Shown here piece after piece: positions 27,985 to 46,281 of a DNA stretch of 64,000 nt. The stretch lies in the sequence record OZ035799.1; one strand, 5' to 3'. The position numbers were made by a program, and so were the translations under genes. A model generated the notes under the pieces. That model ran no database searches. It saw nothing but the letters and a program-made list of their open reading frames with translations, and was not told where the DNA came from. The DNA is from Justusliebigvirus alia. The number at the start of each line of letters is the position of its first letter. The stretch's first letter is position 1.

Positions 27985-28062
27985 TATAATATAAGCTATC
28001 CAATAATATAAGCTATCCAATAATAATAAGCTATACAATAATAATAAGCTATACAATAATAA
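27985..28062. repeat. iteron-like direct repeats (4 copies, 17-18 bp)
   Basis: ataagctatccaataat x2 followed by ataagctatacaataata x2 in tandem. Confidence 0.6.
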
Positions 28063-28944
28063 ACATCGTGAATAATGATGCTGATGATCATAATGCGCCA
28101 CCTTCCAGGGCGGCGCTATGTGAACACAAAGAAATCTTTCTTGTCAAGAAAAATATTAACACTATTGCGCAAAATTATTTATATATGAATAGATGGTTTT
28201 TCATACTATTGCCCCTATAACATACCTCATTTGTTGCAATGTACCTTCCTATTTGTTGAGTATAGTTATAGCCTATTTGTTGAGCCTACTTTCTTAAAAG
28301 CGCAATAAAGTAGAAATATCTTGATTTTTAGTCGGTTTTATAGTACAGAAAGTATGCAAATGATAATCATTATCAGCTATCTTCCACGGGTAGCACTATT
28401 TCACGCCAGATCATTTCATTTGGCAAGGTGTATATAGATGTTTAGACTTGCCAAGCCATTGATTTACTTAGAATTTATCTGTTTTGTTGTGAGTAGTACC
28501 TTTCTTGCTCAGAAAATAATCAAAAGTCTTATAAGTCATTGAATGATAATGCAAATGATAATTATTCTCATTGATATTTGAGGGGGACGGTCGGCAGAAA
28601 TCGGGGGGCGCTGAAAATCGCGTTAAGCACCTCTCGCAAGCGAGCAGTATTTTGCGGCAAGTTATTGATATTATTGACTTTACGCTTATGAAAAGGGGGT
28701 GTGTCGAAATAAATCGGGTATACCGGAAAATTTTTGTGGCATAGATATTTATTTGTCTATATTATGTACAAAGGGGTGTGTTAAAAATATTAGGTATATA
28801 TAGAATAATTGATAGGGAAATCCTATGCTAATCCCTCCATTAATGATGTTCCTATGTTACTGTTCTTGTAATAGATGAAAAGACGCTGTATGATGTGTGG
28901 CATGAAACGTAAACTTACAACGTAAACTTATAAAGGAGTCTGAT

Positions 28945-29322
28945 ATGTGTGTTCCTCTTAGCAGTCCACTGCTGTTAGAATTTTACAAAGCATGGATGCA
29001 AGATCATTCCTCAATGCATCGTGAGAATGTTGGTTTGTGTATTTGCCTTATGGATTATCTGGCAACCACTATGTCAAAGAAAAAACCTACGCGAGAAGAT
29101 ATAGAACATTTCAAAATGGTTCGCAGTAAAACGCTGGAAGAGATGAAATTGCAATTCACGTGTGCTGGGCTATCCTCCTTCCTGCCCTTTAATGATGATC
29201 TTCTGTGTTATGAAGATGAAGGTAAGAAACATTCTTGCCATACTAACCCAGAGAGATTGCAGTGGGTGAAAGATCGTATTGCCGATTCATGTTTGGTGTT
29301 AGGGGGTGATAATGAAAAGTAA
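28945..29322 (+). CDS. hypothetical protein, paralog family A (copy 1)
   Basis: Shares L..FY.AW, GLC.CL.DY, QFTCAGL...LPFN, CHTN..RLQWVKDRI with ORFs at 29312, 31604, 32596. Confidence 0.5.
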   Translation: MCVPLSSPLLLEFYKAWMQDHSSMHRENVGLCICLMDYLATTMSKKKPTREDIEHFKMVRSKTLEEMKLQFTCAGLSSFLPFNDDLLCYEDEGKKHSCHTNPERLQWVKDRIADSCLVLGGDNEK

Positions 29323-29680
29323 TATTCCGTTGAGTAGTGCAGCTTTAATACGATTCTATAAAGCATGGATTGCCAACCATCCGGCAATGAATCGCACAAC
29401 GAGTGGCTTGTGTGGTTGTCTGGTAGATTATGTAGATGATTTTGTTGGTGAGGTAACTAGAGAAGAAGATAAAAGATGGCGTGATCGTTTGTTGGATAGT
29501 TTGAAATACGAAATGAGGAAACAATTTACATGTGCAGGACTGGACTACAATCTTCCGTTCAATGCAGATTGCATGGATTACCTTTCAGAATGTATAGACT
29601 TGGCGTGTCATACCAACACGTTACGTCTTCAATGGGTGAAAGACAGAATCGAAGATGCAAATAATGCTTGCATTGAATAG
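29312..29680 (+). CDS. hypothetical protein, paralog family A (copy 2)
   Basis: Same motif set as copy 1; start could also be 29306. Confidence 0.5.
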   Translation: MKSNIPLSSAALIRFYKAWIANHPAMNRTTSGLCGCLVDYVDDFVGEVTREEDKRWRDRLLDSLKYEMRKQFTCAGLDYNLPFNADCMDYLSECIDLACHTNTLRLQWVKDRIEDANNACIE

Positions 29681-29751
29681 AAATGCCTGTACACTGTGTT
29701 CCATAAGATATGCAATATCGCGCATAACAAAACTACTAATGAGAGGTGTAA

Positions 29752-30210
29752 ATGAAAACTGTATCTTTGTATCTTGCTAACACGGAGCGTGTACATAATC
29801 TTGTAAAAGAATGCGGTGTGAGTGTTCAATTTAACATAGGAACGCCTTCCGTGGTGACAGGCAGCGAGATGTGTGTTATTGATTTCATCAATGAATATTT
29901 TCGTGGGAAGCCTATTGCTCGTCACTTCATTCGAGAAATGCGAGATGTACAACAGGATTATGAATTCTACCCAGAAATTTGTGAACGCTATGAAACTATT
30001 CTTAGTTCTGTAGAAGATCCAGATACCAGTGAAACAGGTGTTTCCCACTTACTGTGGATGTTGAATGAAATCCAGGATGGGTGTAATGATATGTCTGAAA
30101 CCAAACGCCATCGTTGGCTAGGCTATATTCAGGGTGTTATGGTTATGAAAAACCTTATTACAGTTGATGATGAACGTAACGCTACGCGCCCCGTCTTTAA
30201 TGGAGCATAA
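29752..30210 (+). CDS. hypothetical protein
   Basis: 152 aa; no secure motif. Confidence 0.5.
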   Translation: MKTVSLYLANTERVHNLVKECGVSVQFNIGTPSVVTGSEMCVIDFINEYFRGKPIARHFIREMRDVQQDYEFYPEICERYETILSSVEDPDTSETGVSHLLWMLNEIQDGCNDMSETKRHRWLGYIQGVMVMKNLITVDDERNATRPVFNGA

Positions 30211-40579: not shown

Positions 40580-40612
40580 ACTAAAATAAAGCCCCTAGAA
40601 GCGATTCTAGGG
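40580..40612. terminator. bidirectional rho-independent terminator
   Basis: AAAATAAAGCCCCTAGAAGCGATTCTAGGGGCTTTTGTTTG: A-run, hairpin, T-run; separates convergent plus and minus blocks. Confidence 0.65.
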
Positions 40613-40684
40613 GCTTTTGTTTGCATTAGATAGGGAAACGTATTACTAAAATAAAAAGTGCGTTAGAATGCGTTACAGGAGGTT

Positions 40685-40942
40685 TTAAGAATGCATAAAA
40701 TCTTCTTCAGGGCAGGTTGAGAGATAAGAGATGCACGTTGGGACAACAACAACATTATCTTTAAGGTTTGCAACCAAGCCTTTTGTAATTCCAGCCACTG
40801 CCCCGTTAATATCTGCTTGACGGATACCAAAACCTTGTTGTGCGGATAGATAACAAAATCCCTCACCTTTCTGTTGATTATTATTGAAGTAATAAACGTA
40901 GTGCATCATAAAATGGTCTTTAACGATTTGTTCTGTGGTCAT
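40685..40942 (-). CDS. hypothetical protein
   Basis: 85 aa ORF with GGAGAATATT SD; follows a minus-strand terminator hairpin (40957-40975). Confidence 0.4.
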   Translation of the reverse strand: MTTEQIVKDHFMMHYVYYFNNNQQKGEGFCYLSAQQGFGIRQADINGAVAGITKGLVANLKDNVVVVPTCISYLSTCPEEDFMHS

Positions 40943-40985
40943 AATATTCTCCTATAAGAAAAGGGGCTTTCGCCCCTTGGTCAAG

Positions 40986-41798
40986 TTACTTAGTCAAATG
41001 ATCTTCTATCATTTTTATGAAAGCAGGATTGCTAAAAGCATCTGCTGCCTTTTCTCTATAAACAAAGACTCCTCTATCTTCGTAAAGAAGAGTTTCTTCG
41101 TAATTAATTCCTGGGTTAACAACAATCATTTTTGTACCCATACTAAGTGCAGGGAATAATTCCCAATTAAAATTGATAACTTGGTTTGAACATCCTACTA
41201 CAACAACCAAATCTTGCATGGTCAAAGTATCAAACAAGTGAGCCATATCTGCATACAAAGGTGCAGCCTCACCAAAAAATACAACATTAGGCTTCACCCA
41301 ATTATAATCATCTATGTTTATACTATTGTAACCAATGTCTACCAGTGTTTTGTAATCTCCAGGATGCATACGGTAAACTACTTCAGGAAGATACCCGTGC
41401 ACGTGAATAACAGAATCCCTGTCCACACCTGCTCGCTCTAGTAGATCATCAACGTTTGTTGTCAAGTTTACTACTTGGTTAGGATATTCCTTAAACCACT
41501 TTGCTATTTGAATATGTGCAGCATTAGGTTGTACATCTTTAAGCTCAACACGTCTTTTGTTATAAAATTCGTGTGTTTTGGCATACAAGTCCATACCGTT
41601 CTCGTCTACACCACCGACCACTGGAAGATCTGGTGATGTTCTCACACGATAACCTGCTTGGAAAGCTCCAATATCGCAGATCTCTTCTAAATCCCATTCT
41701 TCCCATAAGGCACGACCACTATCTGTGTCTGTTCGGAATGTTCGAATCCCACTGTCTGCACTTAAACCAGCTCCACTAACAAAAATTACTCTTCGCAT
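40986..41798 (-). CDS. Sir2 (sirtuin)-family protein, apparently lacking the zinc-ribbon module
   Basis: VIFVSGAGLSADSGIRTFR (GAGxS..SGIxxFR), catalytic His in VIHVHGYL, VVVVGCSNQV (GTS-like); no CxxC pairs seen. Confidence 0.7.
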   Translation of the reverse strand: MRRVIFVSGAGLSADSGIRTFRTDTDSGRALWEEWDLEEICDIGAFQAGYRVRTSPDLPVVGGVDENGMDLYAKTHEFYNKRRVELKDVQPNAAHIQIAKWFKEYPNQVVNLTTNVDDLLERAGVDRDSVIHVHGYLPEVVYRMHPGDYKTLVDIGYNSINIDDYNWVKPNVVFFGEAAPLYADMAHLFDTLTMQDLVVVVGCSNQVINFNWELFPALSMGTKMIVVNPGINYEETLLYEDRGVFVYREKAADAFSNPAFIKMIEDHLTK

Positions 41799-42355
41799 TC
41801 AATATCCTCTTCGTAATCATCATCCCAAGAAGATGCATCGTAACGCTCTTCCTCTTCGAAATCCCAATTAATTTCTACTCCAAAATCTAAAAACAATTTA
41901 ACAATGTTTTCTGTAGAATAGTATTTATCATAAGCGTTAGCTAGTTCCCAATACTTGTCACTCAATTTTTTATAAGTAGGATCATTATAGTCATAATCTA
42001 CTTTATAACCATAGTCATACATCTCTTGTTCAGCTTTAAGCATAGCTTCTGGTGTAAGAAGATTAGGGAACGGACGATTTCTTTCTTTTAACTTAGAAGC
42101 GATCCAGTTTGCAACATTCACCACTTCACCATCTCGATTATCACCTAAACAACTTGCATAATCTCCATCTTCGTAAGTGCCTAAATCCCCACTAACTTCA
42201 TGTACAATAGACGAATACGATCCACACGTTTCACAATCTGAAAAAGTGTCTACTGTTGTAATATCAACAGATAAAACTGGTAAAGCCATAGCTTCTTTCA
42301 CACAAGCCTCCTCATATAATAACATGTCATCAAAACCCATATATCCTCCAGACAA
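41786..42355 (-). CDS. hypothetical acidic protein
   Basis: 189 aa, Asp/Glu/Tyr-rich, C-terminus DDDYEEDIECEE; overlaps Sir2 start by 13 nt. Confidence 0.5.
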   Translation of the reverse strand: MSGGYMGFDDMLLYEEACVKEAMALPVLSVDITTVDTFSDCETCGSYSSIVHEVSGDLGTYEDGDYASCLGDNRDGEVVNVANWIASKLKERNRPFPNLLTPEAMLKAEQEMYDYGYKVDYDYNDPTYKKLSDKYWELANAYDKYYSTENIVKLFLDFGVEINWDFEEEERYDASSWDDDYEEDIECEE

Positions 42356-42358
42356 ATA

Positions 42359-42380
42359 AAGCCCCTGCTTGGGGGCTTTG
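42359..42380 (-). terminator. rho-independent terminator (minus strand)
   Basis: AAATAAAGCCCCTGCTTGGGGGCTTT; A-run on top strand precedes the hairpin. Confidence 0.5.
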
Positions 42381-42395
42381 GTTAAGTTTTACGGA

Positions 42396-43004
42396 TTATA
42401 CCAGACTTTTAAGGTACTTGTCAAGGGCTTCTTGATCACCTTGACAAACATAGCAACGGAAGTCTTGAGCAGAAGGTTCTTTGTCTTCGTCCCAATCCCA
42501 ATAGACAGTACCTTTATAGCGTGAACCTGGGAACTCGAAATATGCTGTATGAGTAATATGATGTGGGCCACCCCAAAACTGTGTAAAAGTAAATTGAGGA
42601 TACGCTGCTTTAACTGTATTTTCAAACCAAGTTTTACGATCTAATGCTTCGTTTATAAAATAAGCATGGCGTTCCATTTCATCCCAGTTTTTCCAAACGC
42701 ATTTTTCATCCAGAGAAAAAACAAAATCTTCACTGTTGAATTCATCTGTATCTTCCAAAATATCATAATCATGTGCACTAGGTATCCACCATCCAGCTTC
42801 TAGTAGTGCTTTCACGGGTACAAAACCTTTTTCAGCATATTGATCAAATTCTTTTACTCTACGTACAGTGCAGTATTCATCTTCACCACCAATGTCCAGT
42901 AGACAAGCACCTTTGCGTCTTGCTGCAAGACCATGTGTATCAAAAACTACAACACTACCTTCACCGTCTTCACGATCTACTTGATATGCAACTTTTTGAG
43001 TCAT
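42396..43004 (-). CDS. hypothetical protein
   Basis: 202 aa ORF; no recognisable motif. Confidence 0.5.
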   Translation of the reverse strand: MTQKVAYQVDREDGEGSVVVFDTHGLAARRKGACLLDIGGEDEYCTVRRVKEFDQYAEKGFVPVKALLEAGWWIPSAHDYDILEDTDEFNSEDFVFSLDEKCVWKNWDEMERHAYFINEALDRKTWFENTVKAAYPQFTFTQFWGGPHHITHTAYFEFPGSRYKGTVYWDWDEDKEPSAQDFRCYVCQGDQEALDKYLKSLV

Positions 43005-43127
43005 ATTACCCCCAATGTATATGGGAAATTAACCAAAAGATAAATTCCCAAAAACACCAACCAAGAAAAGTTAATGGAATTATAAAAGCTATCAGAGCAG
43101 TCTTCCAGCCTTTCCACAATGTTTCCA

Positions 43128-44117
43128 CTATTCCTCCATACATTTAAGAATATGTGCAATGACAGGTATAGTCCAACCGTTACCTAACATCTTATATGCT
43201 TGTGTATTACTACTCACTTTAAAGTAGTCATCTGGCACACCTTGCAAACGGCAACACTCTTTAACGGTTAACTTTCTATAATGTACGCCTTCACTCAATT
43301 TTTCAAAAGCATCTAAATATCTTCCAGGTGGAATGTAAGCTAATAGTACGTCTTTCGGCACAGTCGTGAGGCAACGAGTTTTTTCACTGTCCTGAACTTC
43401 CAAACAATGTACCAAACGATCAGTTTTAGATGTACTACGTTTGCCATTTTCATTAATTCTACGCCCATATATTGCTGCTGGATAAAAAACCAGTTGTCTG
43501 CGACTCTTTTCAAAATACTGTTCTATATTACCACCTTTGGCATAATTTGCATCTATGCAATAAGCCTTATCTCTGTCTACAATACTATCATCTTCAATGA
43601 TATCTTGCAACACTTCATTGGTAATATCCCAGGGTTTTATTTCCCAGTTGCACCAGTATAAACGTTGTCTATTCTGTGCCGTGAAATCTGCGGAGTTAAT
43701 GAATACGGGATCAACACCTAAGTAACTTGTGATCACGTTTTCCCACTCCACTTTCATCTTAACGTTTTCGAGCATGAACTTAACATTAGGGTTAAACTTT
43801 TTAATATGTTCAAGAATCTCAACATATTCGAAGAATAGCTTAGATCGCGGATCTTGAAAGTTCAAACCCTTACCAGAAGAAGAGAAGCCTTGACACGGAC
43901 TACCACCTAACAAAAGATCAATTTCTCCCCACGGAATATCCCATTCTCTCCATTTTGTAACATCGCCTAACTGAATAATATCTGGAAAATTTGCTTGGCT
44001 TTCAGCTATGGCGAATTTGTCTAATTCTGAAGCATAATATGTATCTACTTCAATACCTGCACTTTTTAGCGCAAGCATTCCTCCTGACATACCATCAAAA
44101 AGACTTAAAACTTTCAT
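43128..44117 (-). CDS. DNA (cytosine-5)-methyltransferase
   Basis: Motif I LSLFDGMSGG, motif IV GGSPCQGFS, motif VI FMLENV, motif VIII QNRQRLYW, C-terminal GNGWTIPV. Confidence 0.85.
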   Translation of the reverse strand: MKVLSLFDGMSGGMLALKSAGIEVDTYYASELDKFAIAESQANFPDIIQLGDVTKWREWDIPWGEIDLLLGGSPCQGFSSSGKGLNFQDPRSKLFFEYVEILEHIKKFNPNVKFMLENVKMKVEWENVITSYLGVDPVFINSADFTAQNRQRLYWCNWEIKPWDITNEVLQDIIEDDSIVDRDKAYCIDANYAKGGNIEQYFEKSRRQLVFYPAAIYGRRINENGKRSTSKTDRLVHCLEVQDSEKTRCLTTVPKDVLLAYIPPGRYLDAFEKLSEGVHYRKLTVKECCRLQGVPDDYFKVSSNTQAYKMLGNGWTIPVIAHILKCMEE

Positions 44118-44870: not shown

Positions 44871-45391
44871 ACAACCTCCTCGTAGTTGTTATTGTGTTTT
44901 ACTGTCTCAACATACAATAAAGATTCCATCTGTAATACATTACCAGAAATAATAAACCCATAGGCCATTTCAGATGTGTCTATATCATATGCCCCGTCTT
45001 CCGGTTTAGCAAAGTGTAAAACTATTTCATCTGGGTTTTCTTCATCCCATAGTTTAGAAATTTTCCGAACCAGAATGTTCGCTAAAATAGTTGACATTCG
45101 GGATAAAGCTGTATCCTCATATCTTTTAAAACCTAGCCAATAGAGGTTAAGAATTTCTACTTCTTCTTGTGTTAAGTTTTTGTCTAAAGTAATCAGATCT
45201 GTAGAGCACGGCGTTTTTGTTGAACCTACTGTTACAAAACCTGGGGTGTTATGAAAAACAATCTTAACTTTATCACGTATAAAGTTTAAACCTTGTGCCT
45301 CAACTATATATTGTATTGTAGGTACAATATCGTTTGTTACATCAATAAAACTATCTTTAATGACGCTTATATTATTTCTGGACAAGACCAT
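44867..45391 (-). CDS. hypothetical protein
   Basis: 174 aa ORF. Confidence 0.5.
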   Translation of the reverse strand: MVLSRNNISVIKDSFIDVTNDIVPTIQYIVEAQGLNFIRDKVKIVFHNTPGFVTVGSTKTPCSTDLITLDKNLTQEEVEILNLYWLGFKRYEDTALSRMSTILANILVRKISKLWDEENPDEIVLHFAKPEDGAYDIDTSEMAYGFIISGNVLQMESLLYVETVKHNNNYEEVV

Positions 45392-45953
45392 TCTCCTCTA
45401 AAATAGGCTTAATAAATTCGAAAATTTGTTTTTTACTTTTACCTCGAATATTAAAACAAGGAACATTAAACTTTTTAGCCAACATCCAAGCTGTTCTTGT
45501 ACCACCTAAAGGATCTCCATTTTTATCTGTATTTGCACAAGCTAAAAGAAAACAAGATGGTTTTGGATTCTCAAGATCTCTTCCAAGAACTTGGTGGATA
45601 TTTCTTTGATGTAATTTTTTAGCACCTTGAGATAATCTGTCCCAAGCTGGATGCAATTCTTTTGCATATTGCAAGGTTAAAGCATAGTTTACACTATCTG
45701 GTCTATCAAGAACAATAACCTCTCCCTCTATCTCATTACCTTTAAACGAGAGCCAAGGAATGTATATTTCTTTCTTTGTATTGTTCCCACTCTCATATAC
45801 CCCGCATTCAAATGCGGAATCTGCACCTTCTGCTTTACCAGATCGCAAAATGAACCATGTAGATAACCATTTTGCAACAGATACCATAGTATCCCATTCT
45901 TCGTCTGTAATATCTCTGCTACCAACACCTGTGTAGAATAAATCGCTCATGGT
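45372..45953 (-). CDS. DprA/SLOG-like Rossmann-fold protein (putative nucleotide-binding)
   Basis: YTGVGSRDITDEEW ... ILRSGKAEGADSAFE resembles the GSR...SG.A.GAD signature of DprA/SMF-type Rossmann domains; start set to MSDLFY. Confidence 0.4.
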   Translation of the reverse strand, partial: TMSDLFYTGVGSRDITDEEWDTMVSVAKWLSTWFILRSGKAEGADSAFECGVYESGNNTKKEIYIPWLSFKGNEIEGEVIVLDRPDSVNYALTLQYAKELHPAWDRLSQGAKKLHQRNIHQVLGRDLENPKPSCFLLACANTDKNGDPLGGTRTAWMLAKKFNVPCFNIRGKSKKQIFEFIKPILEENGLVQK

Positions 45954-45960
45954 TTTCTCC

Positions 45961-46281
45961 TTAACAAGTAATATTGGGAGTAACAATTGGATTAACAATT
46001 GGAGTGATAGGGTACGTAAACCAAGGGCTTCCAATTTCCCAAGGATTATAAGGTCTACGAGGATCAAATGGAGGAGTTACTTCAGGCTTTTTCCAAATCT
46101 CCGCTAGTTGTTTCTTCCATTTATCCCTTGCTGTCTCATTATCTTCATCCAACTGTTCATCATTATCTTTTATTTCTGGTTTTGGAAATAAAAGCTCTTT
46201 GACTAACTCAACATCTTCCGTCTCAATAGTAGTTTCTTTCGTAAGTTCTCCTACTGTTTCTTTAATTGTGATTTTATACAT
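45961..46281 (-). CDS. hypothetical Pro-rich protein
   Basis: 106 aa, C-terminal PPFDPRRPYNPWEIGSPWFTYPITPIVNPIVTP. Confidence 0.45.
   Translation of the reverse strand: MYKITIKETVGELTKETTIETEDVELVKELLFPKPEIKDNDEQLDEDNETARDKWKKQLAEIWKKPEVTPPFDPRRPYNPWEIGSPWFTYPITPIVNPIVTPNITC

Follow-up and report, generated by a model that had tools for sequence, protein, structure and literature searches.

A zinc-less sirtuin of Justusliebigvirus alia and its acidic four-cysteine neighbour: relation to CobB-type deacylases, gene cassette and possible functions

Among the sirtuins encoded by bacteriophages, one clade, with members in rV5, Mydo, SP15, Serratia BF and T5.102, has been singled out by Iyer et al. 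in 2022 (PMC9503650, section 3.7.3) and predicted to remove RNA 2'-phosphates in a KptA-like manner, because genes for RNA ligase, cREC, kinase, MazG, phosphoesterase, 2H, Nudix or HAD proteins are found in its vicinity. The present work deals with a direct member of this clade, a 270-amino-acid (aa) sirtuin of Justusliebigvirus alia (record OZ035799.1; phi92 gp038, family PHROG 2162). Its gene (Sir2) lies at 40986..41798 of the stretch analysed, a window of 64,000 nucleotides (nt) corresponding to positions 64001-128000 of the 148-kb genome; coordinates refer to this window and to its minus strand unless otherwise stated. The protein is 47-56% identical to the Vequintavirus and Mydo members of the clade and 50-61% identical to the T5-like ones, and shares with the clade a module devoid of zinc ligands, the TTNVD motif and the motif GCSNQVINFNWELFP. 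Unlike the contexts described for the clade, no RNA ligase, polynucleotide kinase (PNK), cREC or HAD gene adjoins it here, and it forms instead a cassette with the gene of an acidic protein. Over the 3.6 kb round the locus the sequence agrees completely (100%) with that of Justusliebigvirus alia OZ035770.1, and about 60 phi92-like coliphages match it at 97-99% identity.

The motifs GAGxS, FR, Y-x-x-R, N-x-D, HG, FGE and G-x-S are common to the phage protein and to the deacylases CobB and SIRT5, from which it differs in its overall sequence (about 26% identity), the absence of zinc ligands, a T for the Q of TQNxD, an insertion at residues 47-70 and its acidic character. The CobB of the host has been reported to restrict T4 and lambda, extra CobB activity being harmful to both (PMC4271551). 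The SIR2 NADases of bacterial defence systems (ThsA, DSR1/2, SIR2-HerA, SIR2-APAZ and Avs5), which degrade nicotinamide adenine dinucleotide (NAD+), have a SIR2 Rossmann core without a zinc site, as the phage sirtuin does, but their small domain is helical, whereas the phage protein keeps the sheet of a zinc ribbon stripped of its cysteines. The SirTMs are macrodomain-linked; the phage sirtuin has no macrodomain partner and is nearer to the deacylases. Finally, KptA/Tpt1, of unrelated fold, could be a functional analogue: it transfers an ADP-ribosyl group from NAD+ to an oxyanion, with a cyclisation as the next step. As judged from sequence and modelled fold, the phage sirtuin belongs to a phage-specific zinc-less branch of the class-III (CobB/SIRT5-like) lineage.

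Family identity is established by matches, well outside the range of chance, to Pfam SIR2 (PF02146; E=2.8e-22, score 80 bits, cut-off 24) and to PHROG 2162 (E=7e-104 across residues 1-269), and the records of phi92-like phages label gp038 as 'putative Sir2-like transferase', 'Sir2 (NAD-dependent deacetylase)', 'sirtuin family protein' or 'cobB'. All the open reading frames (ORFs) of a preliminary description of the locus were re-checked and are present as it described, and its recognition of a 270-aa sirtuin with an NAD-binding signature, a catalytic His and a GTS-like motif agrees with the ORF, Pfam, PHROG and motif checks. Conservation was assessed in 14 family members (54-74% identity) and in 89 wider relatives (31-74%). 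The NAD-binding motif GAGLSADSGIRTFR (residues 9-22, 41733..41774), which includes the cofactor-loop residues F21 and R22, is invariant in the family and aligns with GAGISAESGIRTFR of CobB. The class-III anion-binding pair Y-x-x-R is represented by Y79-N-K-R82 (41553..41564), aligning with FYNARR of CobB; Y79 and R82 are invariant among the 14 members and near-invariant among the 89 relatives. The TTNVD motif (residues 113-117, 41448..41462) departs from the canonical TQNxD by a change of Q to T at T114, the catalytic H134 stands within HVHGYL, and VVGCSNQV occupies residues 200-207. Over both samples the invariant or near-invariant positions comprise GAGxS (G9-S13), F21, R22, Y79, R82/R83, P91-N92 and H95, then T113, N115, D117 and H134-G135, and finally K169-P-N-V-V-F-F-G-E177, G202-x-S204, V207 and N228. 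With its catalytic motifs so conserved, the enzyme is almost certainly active. Specific to the family are T114, the motif GCSNQVINFNWELFP and the variable insertion at residues 47-70, missing in the Mydovirus and KEY versions. Moreover, the family is uniformly acidic (isoelectric point, pI, 4.6-5.8; net charge -6 to -20).

The best solved sequence relative is E. coli CobB (E=6e-18), followed by Sir2Af2, Sir2Tm, SIRT5 and Sir2-Af1. The best NCBIfam matches are likewise CobB-type deacylase models, with scores so far under the equivalog cut-offs (NF040867, 84 against 320; NF001753, 105 against 243) that the phage sirtuin is not a CobB orthologue. An AlphaFold2 model built from 89 sequences (predicted local distance difference test, pLDDT, 94.8; predicted template-modelling score, pTM, 0.91) was compared with the PDB by Foldseek: CobB came first (E=6e-17, target-normalised TM 0.84), then Sir2-Af1, SIRT5, Sir2Af2, SIRT2 and Sir2Tm, with no defence SIR2 among the top 50; the engineered CobB variant 'Y92A' is present among the structural matches. 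The fold-comparison figures were about 15 for the ADP-ribosylating SirTMs, 14.8 for SIRT6 and 9.6-14 for the defence SIR2s (PsSIR2 14.0, SIR2-HerA 12.2-12.7, ThsA 11.6, Avs5 9.9). The PADLOC defence models gave nothing significant against the three proteins compared with them (only PDC-S65, E=0.0066 over 37 residues), and none of the sensor or partner domains of defence SIR2s (SLOG, HerA, APAZ/Argonaute, STAND) was found in the single-domain 270-aa protein or its neighbours. The kinship with NAD-degrading defence SIR2s such as ThsA and DSR, put forward in the preliminary description, finds no support in the PADLOC result or in the small module, which is retained in register with the zinc ribbons of close zinc-bearing relatives. 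That description had called for a structural comparison of ThsA-SIR2 with CobB, which came out as CobB-type, and had set against its own proposal a missed zinc-binding module with clear CobB-type affinity; the affinity is clear, and there is no hidden zinc site.

The loss of zinc is seen in the sequence itself. The sirtuin has two Cys only, C41 and C203, and none between H134 and E177 of the FGE loop, the interval to which the Cys ligands of CobB and of the nearest zinc-bearing relatives map. The zinc Cys are missing throughout the 14 diverse family members, so that the absence of zinc CxxC pairs, pointed out before, holds family-wide. His134 and the cysteine-free remnant of the ribbon (41283..41399) include strands at residues 135-143, 151-154 and 167-172. 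An exhaustive search of 1.84 billion representatives yielded 2052 relatives, and of the top 150 the 136 with 200-340 aa were aligned for co-variation: TQNxD went together with four or more module Cys in 67 of them and TTNxD with 0-1 Cys in 32, mixed combinations numbering only 6 and 9 (Fisher p=2e-14, for related sequences and hence not independent events). Zinc-less and zinc-bearing modules align in register on a common frame, [DN]-I-G-Y ... K-P-N-V-V-F-F-G-E, the first CxxC being replaced in the phage sirtuin (Y142, H145) and the second knuckle shortened; further, the AlphaFold2 model retains, with high confidence, a three-stranded small module at the zinc-ribbon position. The common register and the three retained strands show a zinc ribbon minus its cysteines, not the helical domain of the defence NADases, and place the loss of the cysteines within the CobB-like lineage, not the defence-NADase one. 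Four of the five zinc-less relatives sampled are in recognisably phage-like contigs, the fifth being on a short contig without informative neighbours; the single zinc-bearing relative sampled comes from a bacterial contig, where its neighbour is a lipoate-protein ligase (L013 2060-5427). The gene called in this contig does not give the query under table 11, and the organism probably uses an alternative genetic code.

The sirtuin gene is the second of a cassette of two. The cassette has its own sigma-70 promoter at 42395..42424, with TTGACA, an 18-nt spacer, TATAAT and an upstream TG (12/12 matches), located within the last 30 nt (3' end) of the preceding gene, that of phi92 gp041; the 148-kb genome contains three perfect consensus promoters, as compared with 0.28 expected from base composition. 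The other two (TTGACA-N16-TATAAT, window 19134 and 19846, plus strand) stand in a plus-strand block of small early-type genes. Then comes a G+C-rich hairpin with a T-run (42358..42379), which has a conserved counterpart in the Phapecoctavirus locus (L005 5476-5500) and is probably both the terminator of the upstream methyltransferase operon and a 5' leader stem-loop of the cassette transcript. The gene of the acidic protein (phi92 gp039 homologue, PHROG 9509) occupies 41786..42340. Sir2 starts at an ATG (41798) with its own GAGGA, giving an overlap of 13 nt between the two genes, and from this arrangement the sirtuin is predicted to be translationally coupled to the acidic protein. An intrinsic-terminator-like hairpin, annotated as a terminator in phage Paula and conserved in Phapecoctavirus, lies at 40961..40978, 8 nt past the Sir2 stop. 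In Phapecoctavirus the order promoter, hairpin, acidic gene, Sir2 and terminator is identical, with a promoter at the equivalent place (11/12 consensus plus TG); the Sir2 proteins are 68% identical and the acidic proteins only 37%. Since the layout is shared with this second genus, Sir2 and the gene of the acidic protein have been kept together as a unit of two, with its own promoter and terminator. The overlap is present in alia, VEcB and Phapecoctavirus, and lost in Paula and EmilieFrey because a nonsense change, GAA>TAA, shortens the acidic gene. An Rfam scan of cassette and leader gave sub-threshold chance matches only and no family, and the predicted fold of the leader is no more stable than those of shuffled sequences (z=-1.15), hence no riboswitch is present in it. 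Given the consensus sigma-70 promoter, the cassette would be transcribed by the host RNA polymerase and hence probably early in infection.

The acidic protein is probably read from the ATG at 42340, behind a GGAGG Shine-Dalgarno sequence, giving 184 aa, as annotated in other records; a TTG start at 42355 (189 aa) is unlikely, being located in the hairpin tail. Thus, the acidity of this neighbour and its overlap with the Sir2 start stand as first described, and the size of 189 aa probably does not. With a pI of 4.05 and a net charge of -32, it is among the lowest 2% in pI of the window ORFs. Its 25 homologues have an invariant S-x-C-E-x-C-G (C36, C39), a G-D-L-G motif, C64 and a C-terminal E-E-C (C182). 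In the structural model (pLDDT 84) the turn of a beta-hairpin carries the CxxC; after it come a bundle of helices and a disordered acidic tail, in which C182 falls and which is shortened in some phages. From the sequence pattern, a four-cysteine metal site is plausible. In Paula and EmilieFrey the GAA>TAA change (L001 4211-4741, L002 4212-4742) leaves the protein without its last 8 residues, EEDIECEE, and removes the otherwise invariant C-terminal Cys; at least one lineage thus does without the tail cysteine. Searches of Pfam, of PDB sequences and of folds gave no credible relative for the protein, and the Pfam scan of all 25 homologues was empty: these searches speak neither for nor against the earlier idea of a nucleic-acid mimic, four invariant Cys being what was seen instead. 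A below-cut-off match to Pfam PhetRS_B1 (E=0.024), source of the 'putative aminoacyl-tRNA synthetase' label in EmilieFrey, was rejected, as was one to NCBIfam L32 (E=0.066).

The family of the acidic protein, PHROG 9509, comprises 136 phage records, from the Stephanstirmvirinae and from a small number of jumbo phages of Erwinia and Serratia. Its gene adjoins that of the sirtuin only in the Stephanstirmvirinae and is not adjacent to it in Serratia BF; in T5-like, Mydo and Vequintavirus phages the gene that directly precedes Sir2 codes for no homologue of the acidic protein. Since T5-like, rV5-like and Mydo sirtuins do without the acidic protein, it is not an obligate subunit, and we infer a lineage-specific partner, either a regulator or a targeting factor, and not a universal subunit. 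In the T5-like phage TrudiGerster (L008 6755-6937) the sirtuin gene overlaps at its end with a 60-aa ORF, acidic (pI 4.1) and with four cysteines, which is reminiscent of the phi92-type acidic partner but not homologous with it.

Concerning function, in all the candidate chemistries an oxygen nucleophile first attacks C1' of NAD+, and nicotinamide is lost. Our preference, a tentative one, is for an active NAD+-dependent protein lysine deacylase, probably made early. In such an enzyme NAD+ would bind in the Rossmann cleft via GAGxS, F21/R22 and N115/D117, and the acyl-lysine would enter a hydrophobic tunnel (H134, V172, F174, V207), with the Y79/R82 pair favouring negative acyl groups (succinyl, malonyl) besides acetyl; nicotinamide would leave and His134 would drive the formation of O-acyl-ADP-ribose. 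The substrate range would probably be unlike that of the host CobB. This reading is favoured by the nearest folds, by the hydrophobic tunnel and FGE loop, which have been kept, by the independence from RNA ligase in most genomes and by the separate, probably early cassette, and the acidic charge of the family suits basic protein substrates better than RNA. Several points weigh against deacylation. The change of Q to T, the loss of zinc and the new GCSNQVINFNWELFP motif suggest a function shifted relative to that of the cellular deacylases, and the neighbours found in the clade (RNA ligase, PNK, cREC, phosphoesterase, RlaP, NADAR and PTH2) point to an RNA- or ADP-ribose-linked role. Furthermore, the host already has CobB, which itself restricts T4 and lambda, so that it is difficult to see what a phage would gain from a second such enzyme, save one of different specificity. 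Finally, in the literature on phage sirtuins no biochemical or genetic study of any clade member was found, and the NARP3 and PhageMaP papers mention only the host Sir2-HerA.

The conserved His and the residues of the anion pocket cannot separate deacylation from a Tpt1-like phosphate transfer: the Tpt1 and sirtuin mechanisms are formally parallel, and these residues fit both. RNA repair of the KptA/Tpt1 type, the foremost alternative, is possible, if doubtful. ADP-ribose would pass from NAD+ to the 2'-phosphate at an RNA (tRNA) end that has been broken or ligated, releasing ADP-ribose 1'',2''-cyclic phosphate; the sirtuin would work with the phage RNA ligase, PNK, phosphoesterase and cREC against host anticodon nucleases, and Y79/R82 would bind phosphate, not carboxylate. 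The derived active-site motif and the harm done to T4 and lambda by extra CobB activity would also be in keeping with an RNA- or ADP-ribose-directed role. By tblastn the sirtuin is present in 982 phage records, which cover the phi92-like phages, Phapecoctavirus, Vequintavirus, Mydovirus and the T5-like phages as well as jumbo phages of Vibrio and Erwinia. The RNA-repair neighbourhoods described for the clade (PMC9503650) were confirmed in AlexBoehm (Vequintavirus) and Mydo (Mydovirus), where RNA ligase, PNK and phosphoesterase genes adjoin the sirtuin. More zinc-less relatives have comparable company: in a T4-like metagenomic phage (L014 6917-9181) the sirtuin has RlaP and a NADAR protein as its flanking neighbours, in another phage contig (L016 5001-6100) its stop overlaps the gene of a PTH2 peptidyl-tRNA hydrolase, and another relative adjoins cREC and a metallophosphatase. 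The alia genome itself encodes a whole RNA-repair cluster (genome 132973-138457: cREC-like protein, phosphoesterase, RNA ligase, PNK, DNA ligase and a homologue of bas56_0206, an uncharacterised Vequintavirus protein), adjoined by PRPP-synthetase-like (PRPP, phosphoribosyl pyrophosphate) and NAMPT-like genes of NAD salvage (genome 140577-141724).

These clusters, however, are located beyond the window, some 27-35 kb away from the sirtuin, the RNA-repair one at about 27 kb, and the sirtuin stands in a promoter-terminator cassette of its own; no RNA-end-processing genes were found within the cassette or the 64-kb window, nor RNA-repair genes in the T5-like contexts. When records are counted genus by genus, at least 547 of the 982 with the sirtuin (56%) are without an Rnl1-type RNA ligase (Salmonella phages, 289 vs 14), and RNA ligation is therefore not required for the sirtuin. 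The strongly acidic family and the retained acyl-lysine tunnel residues and FGE loop also argue against an RNA substrate, and T4-type PNK/Rnl1 repair is not known to leave a 2'-phosphate.

A more far-reaching proposal, which we consider rather unlikely, is that the clade has switched from acyl-lysine to a nucleic-acid- or nucleotide-linked phosphate (an RNA 2'-phosphate or an ADP-ribose derivative), which would make it the first such sirtuin. The phi92-type version would then have become uncoupled from RNA repair and placed under the acidic four-cysteine protein, whose EEC tail might fill the Y/R pocket as a pseudo-substrate or regulator.

Protein mono-ADP-ribosylation, as by SirTM or T4 Alt/Mod, which would redirect a host protein with the acidic protein as a possible guide or first substrate, is distinctly improbable. 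The probably early expression by the host polymerase is typical of host-takeover enzymes, a gene for an ADP-ribose-processing NADAR protein adjoins the sirtuin in one relative, and the altered TTNVD could weaken the deacylation steps. Against it, Pfam and PHROG gave no match to a macrodomain or other eraser in the cassette or its neighbours, and the catalytic His and full set of deacylase motifs are kept.

An NAD+ glycohydrolase or modulator like the defence SIR2 domains, lowering host NAD+ or starving NAD-dependent defences, is very unlikely. Zinc-less defence sirtuin domains are indeed NADases (PMC9503650), and the phage protein is a single-domain enzyme, probably early. However, there is no significant PADLOC match, the fold ranking is unfavourable, and the zinc was lost independently, within the CobB-like lineage, the one zinc-bearing relative whose context was read being in a bacterial contig. 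Moreover, the related phage Bas63 uses NAD-salvage genes such as those of the alia genome to restore NAD+ and counter Sir2-HerA (PMC11482910), which makes self-inflicted depletion implausible and tells against the host NAD depletion considered in the preliminary description. Finally, a catalytically irrelevant decoy or scaffold, titrating a host factor (for instance a CobB-recognising one) or an NAD-derived signal without turnover, is hardly tenable, for although meddling with CobB-dependent processes could pay where host CobB restricts phages, and zinc loss might destabilise the fold, the catalytic residues are invariant over hundreds of phage homologues and the model is confident and well folded.

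As regards the genes around the cassette, the C5 cytosine DNA methyltransferase already noticed beyond the 202-aa gene is confirmed by Pfam DNA_methylase (43128..44117; E=1.4e-43). It is followed with near-zero spacing by a 40-aa hydrophobic ORF (43006..43128), which bridges the methyltransferase stop and the gp041 start and is annotated in VEcB and EmilieFrey, and by the gene of the 202-aa phi92 gp041 (PHROG 8514; 42396..43004), the last of this upstream operon. Because the terminator-like hairpin and the promoter separate it from the cassette, the 202-aa gene belongs to the methyltransferase operon and not to the three-gene operon proposed at first. Homologues of gp041 (30-41% identity) occur in phages of Vibrio, Pseudomonas and Xanthomonas that are not related to this one and have genomes of 41-57 kb, and gp041 is therefore an independent mobile module. 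Downstream of the Sir2 terminator comes an 85-aa protein (phi92 gp037 homologue, PHROG 15991; 40685..40942), a homologue of which occupies the equivalent position in Phapecoctavirus, and minus- and plus-strand gene blocks then converge at a bidirectional terminator (40588..40617), annotated in Paula.

Other features of the genome were observed in passing. A few genes upstream of the cassette lie a DprA-like (SLOG-type Rossmannoid) protein (window 45372-46067; PHROG 768, E=2e-59) and a NinI-like/calcineurin-type phosphatase (about 46.3-47.0 kb); Iyer et al. (PMC9503650) tie such DprA-like/SLOG and calcineurin-type phosphatase domains to NAD/ADP-ribose or RNA-end processing. The label 'histidyl tRNA synthetase' given in VEcB to a 190-aa protein (about 47.4-47.9 kb) is doubtful, the protein being far too short. 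At about 52.0-55.3 kb the VEcB annotation indicates a four-gene deoxythymidine diphosphate (dTDP)-sugar pathway, an unusual phage cargo (glucose-1-phosphate thymidylyltransferase, dTDP-4-dehydrorhamnose 3,5-epimerase and two nucleotide-sugar epimerases). At 27991-28062 an iteron-like repeat of 18 nt (ATAAGCTATCCAATAATA) stands four times in tandem, near about 1.7 kb without annotated gene in phage ALITA (28330-30084), and the VEcB record begins at about 28800; the region 27991-30084 might contain an origin or a terminus, or be regulatory.

The gene family has already been annotated and discussed in print, and as a discovery it is a modest one. What is added here is the placing of zinc loss in the deacylase lineage, with the co-varying change of Q to T and the rejection of the analogy with defence NADases, together with the promoter-to-terminator cassette with its four-cysteine acidic partner and the uncoupling from the RNA-repair cluster in phi92-type phages. 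Nearly a thousand phages with known sequences, from hosts such as Escherichia, Salmonella, Klebsiella and Vibrio, carry the sirtuin, among them therapeutic candidates and the model phage T5, and NAD+ is a central battleground of phage-bacterial immunity in which host CobB itself restricts phages. The loss of zinc, the change of Q to T and the two-gene cassette provide concrete experimental handles, and the interest of the system would be higher if an RNA-directed or partner-regulated reading were true. Deciding among host-protein deacylation, RNA repair and ADP-ribosylation would fill a real gap.

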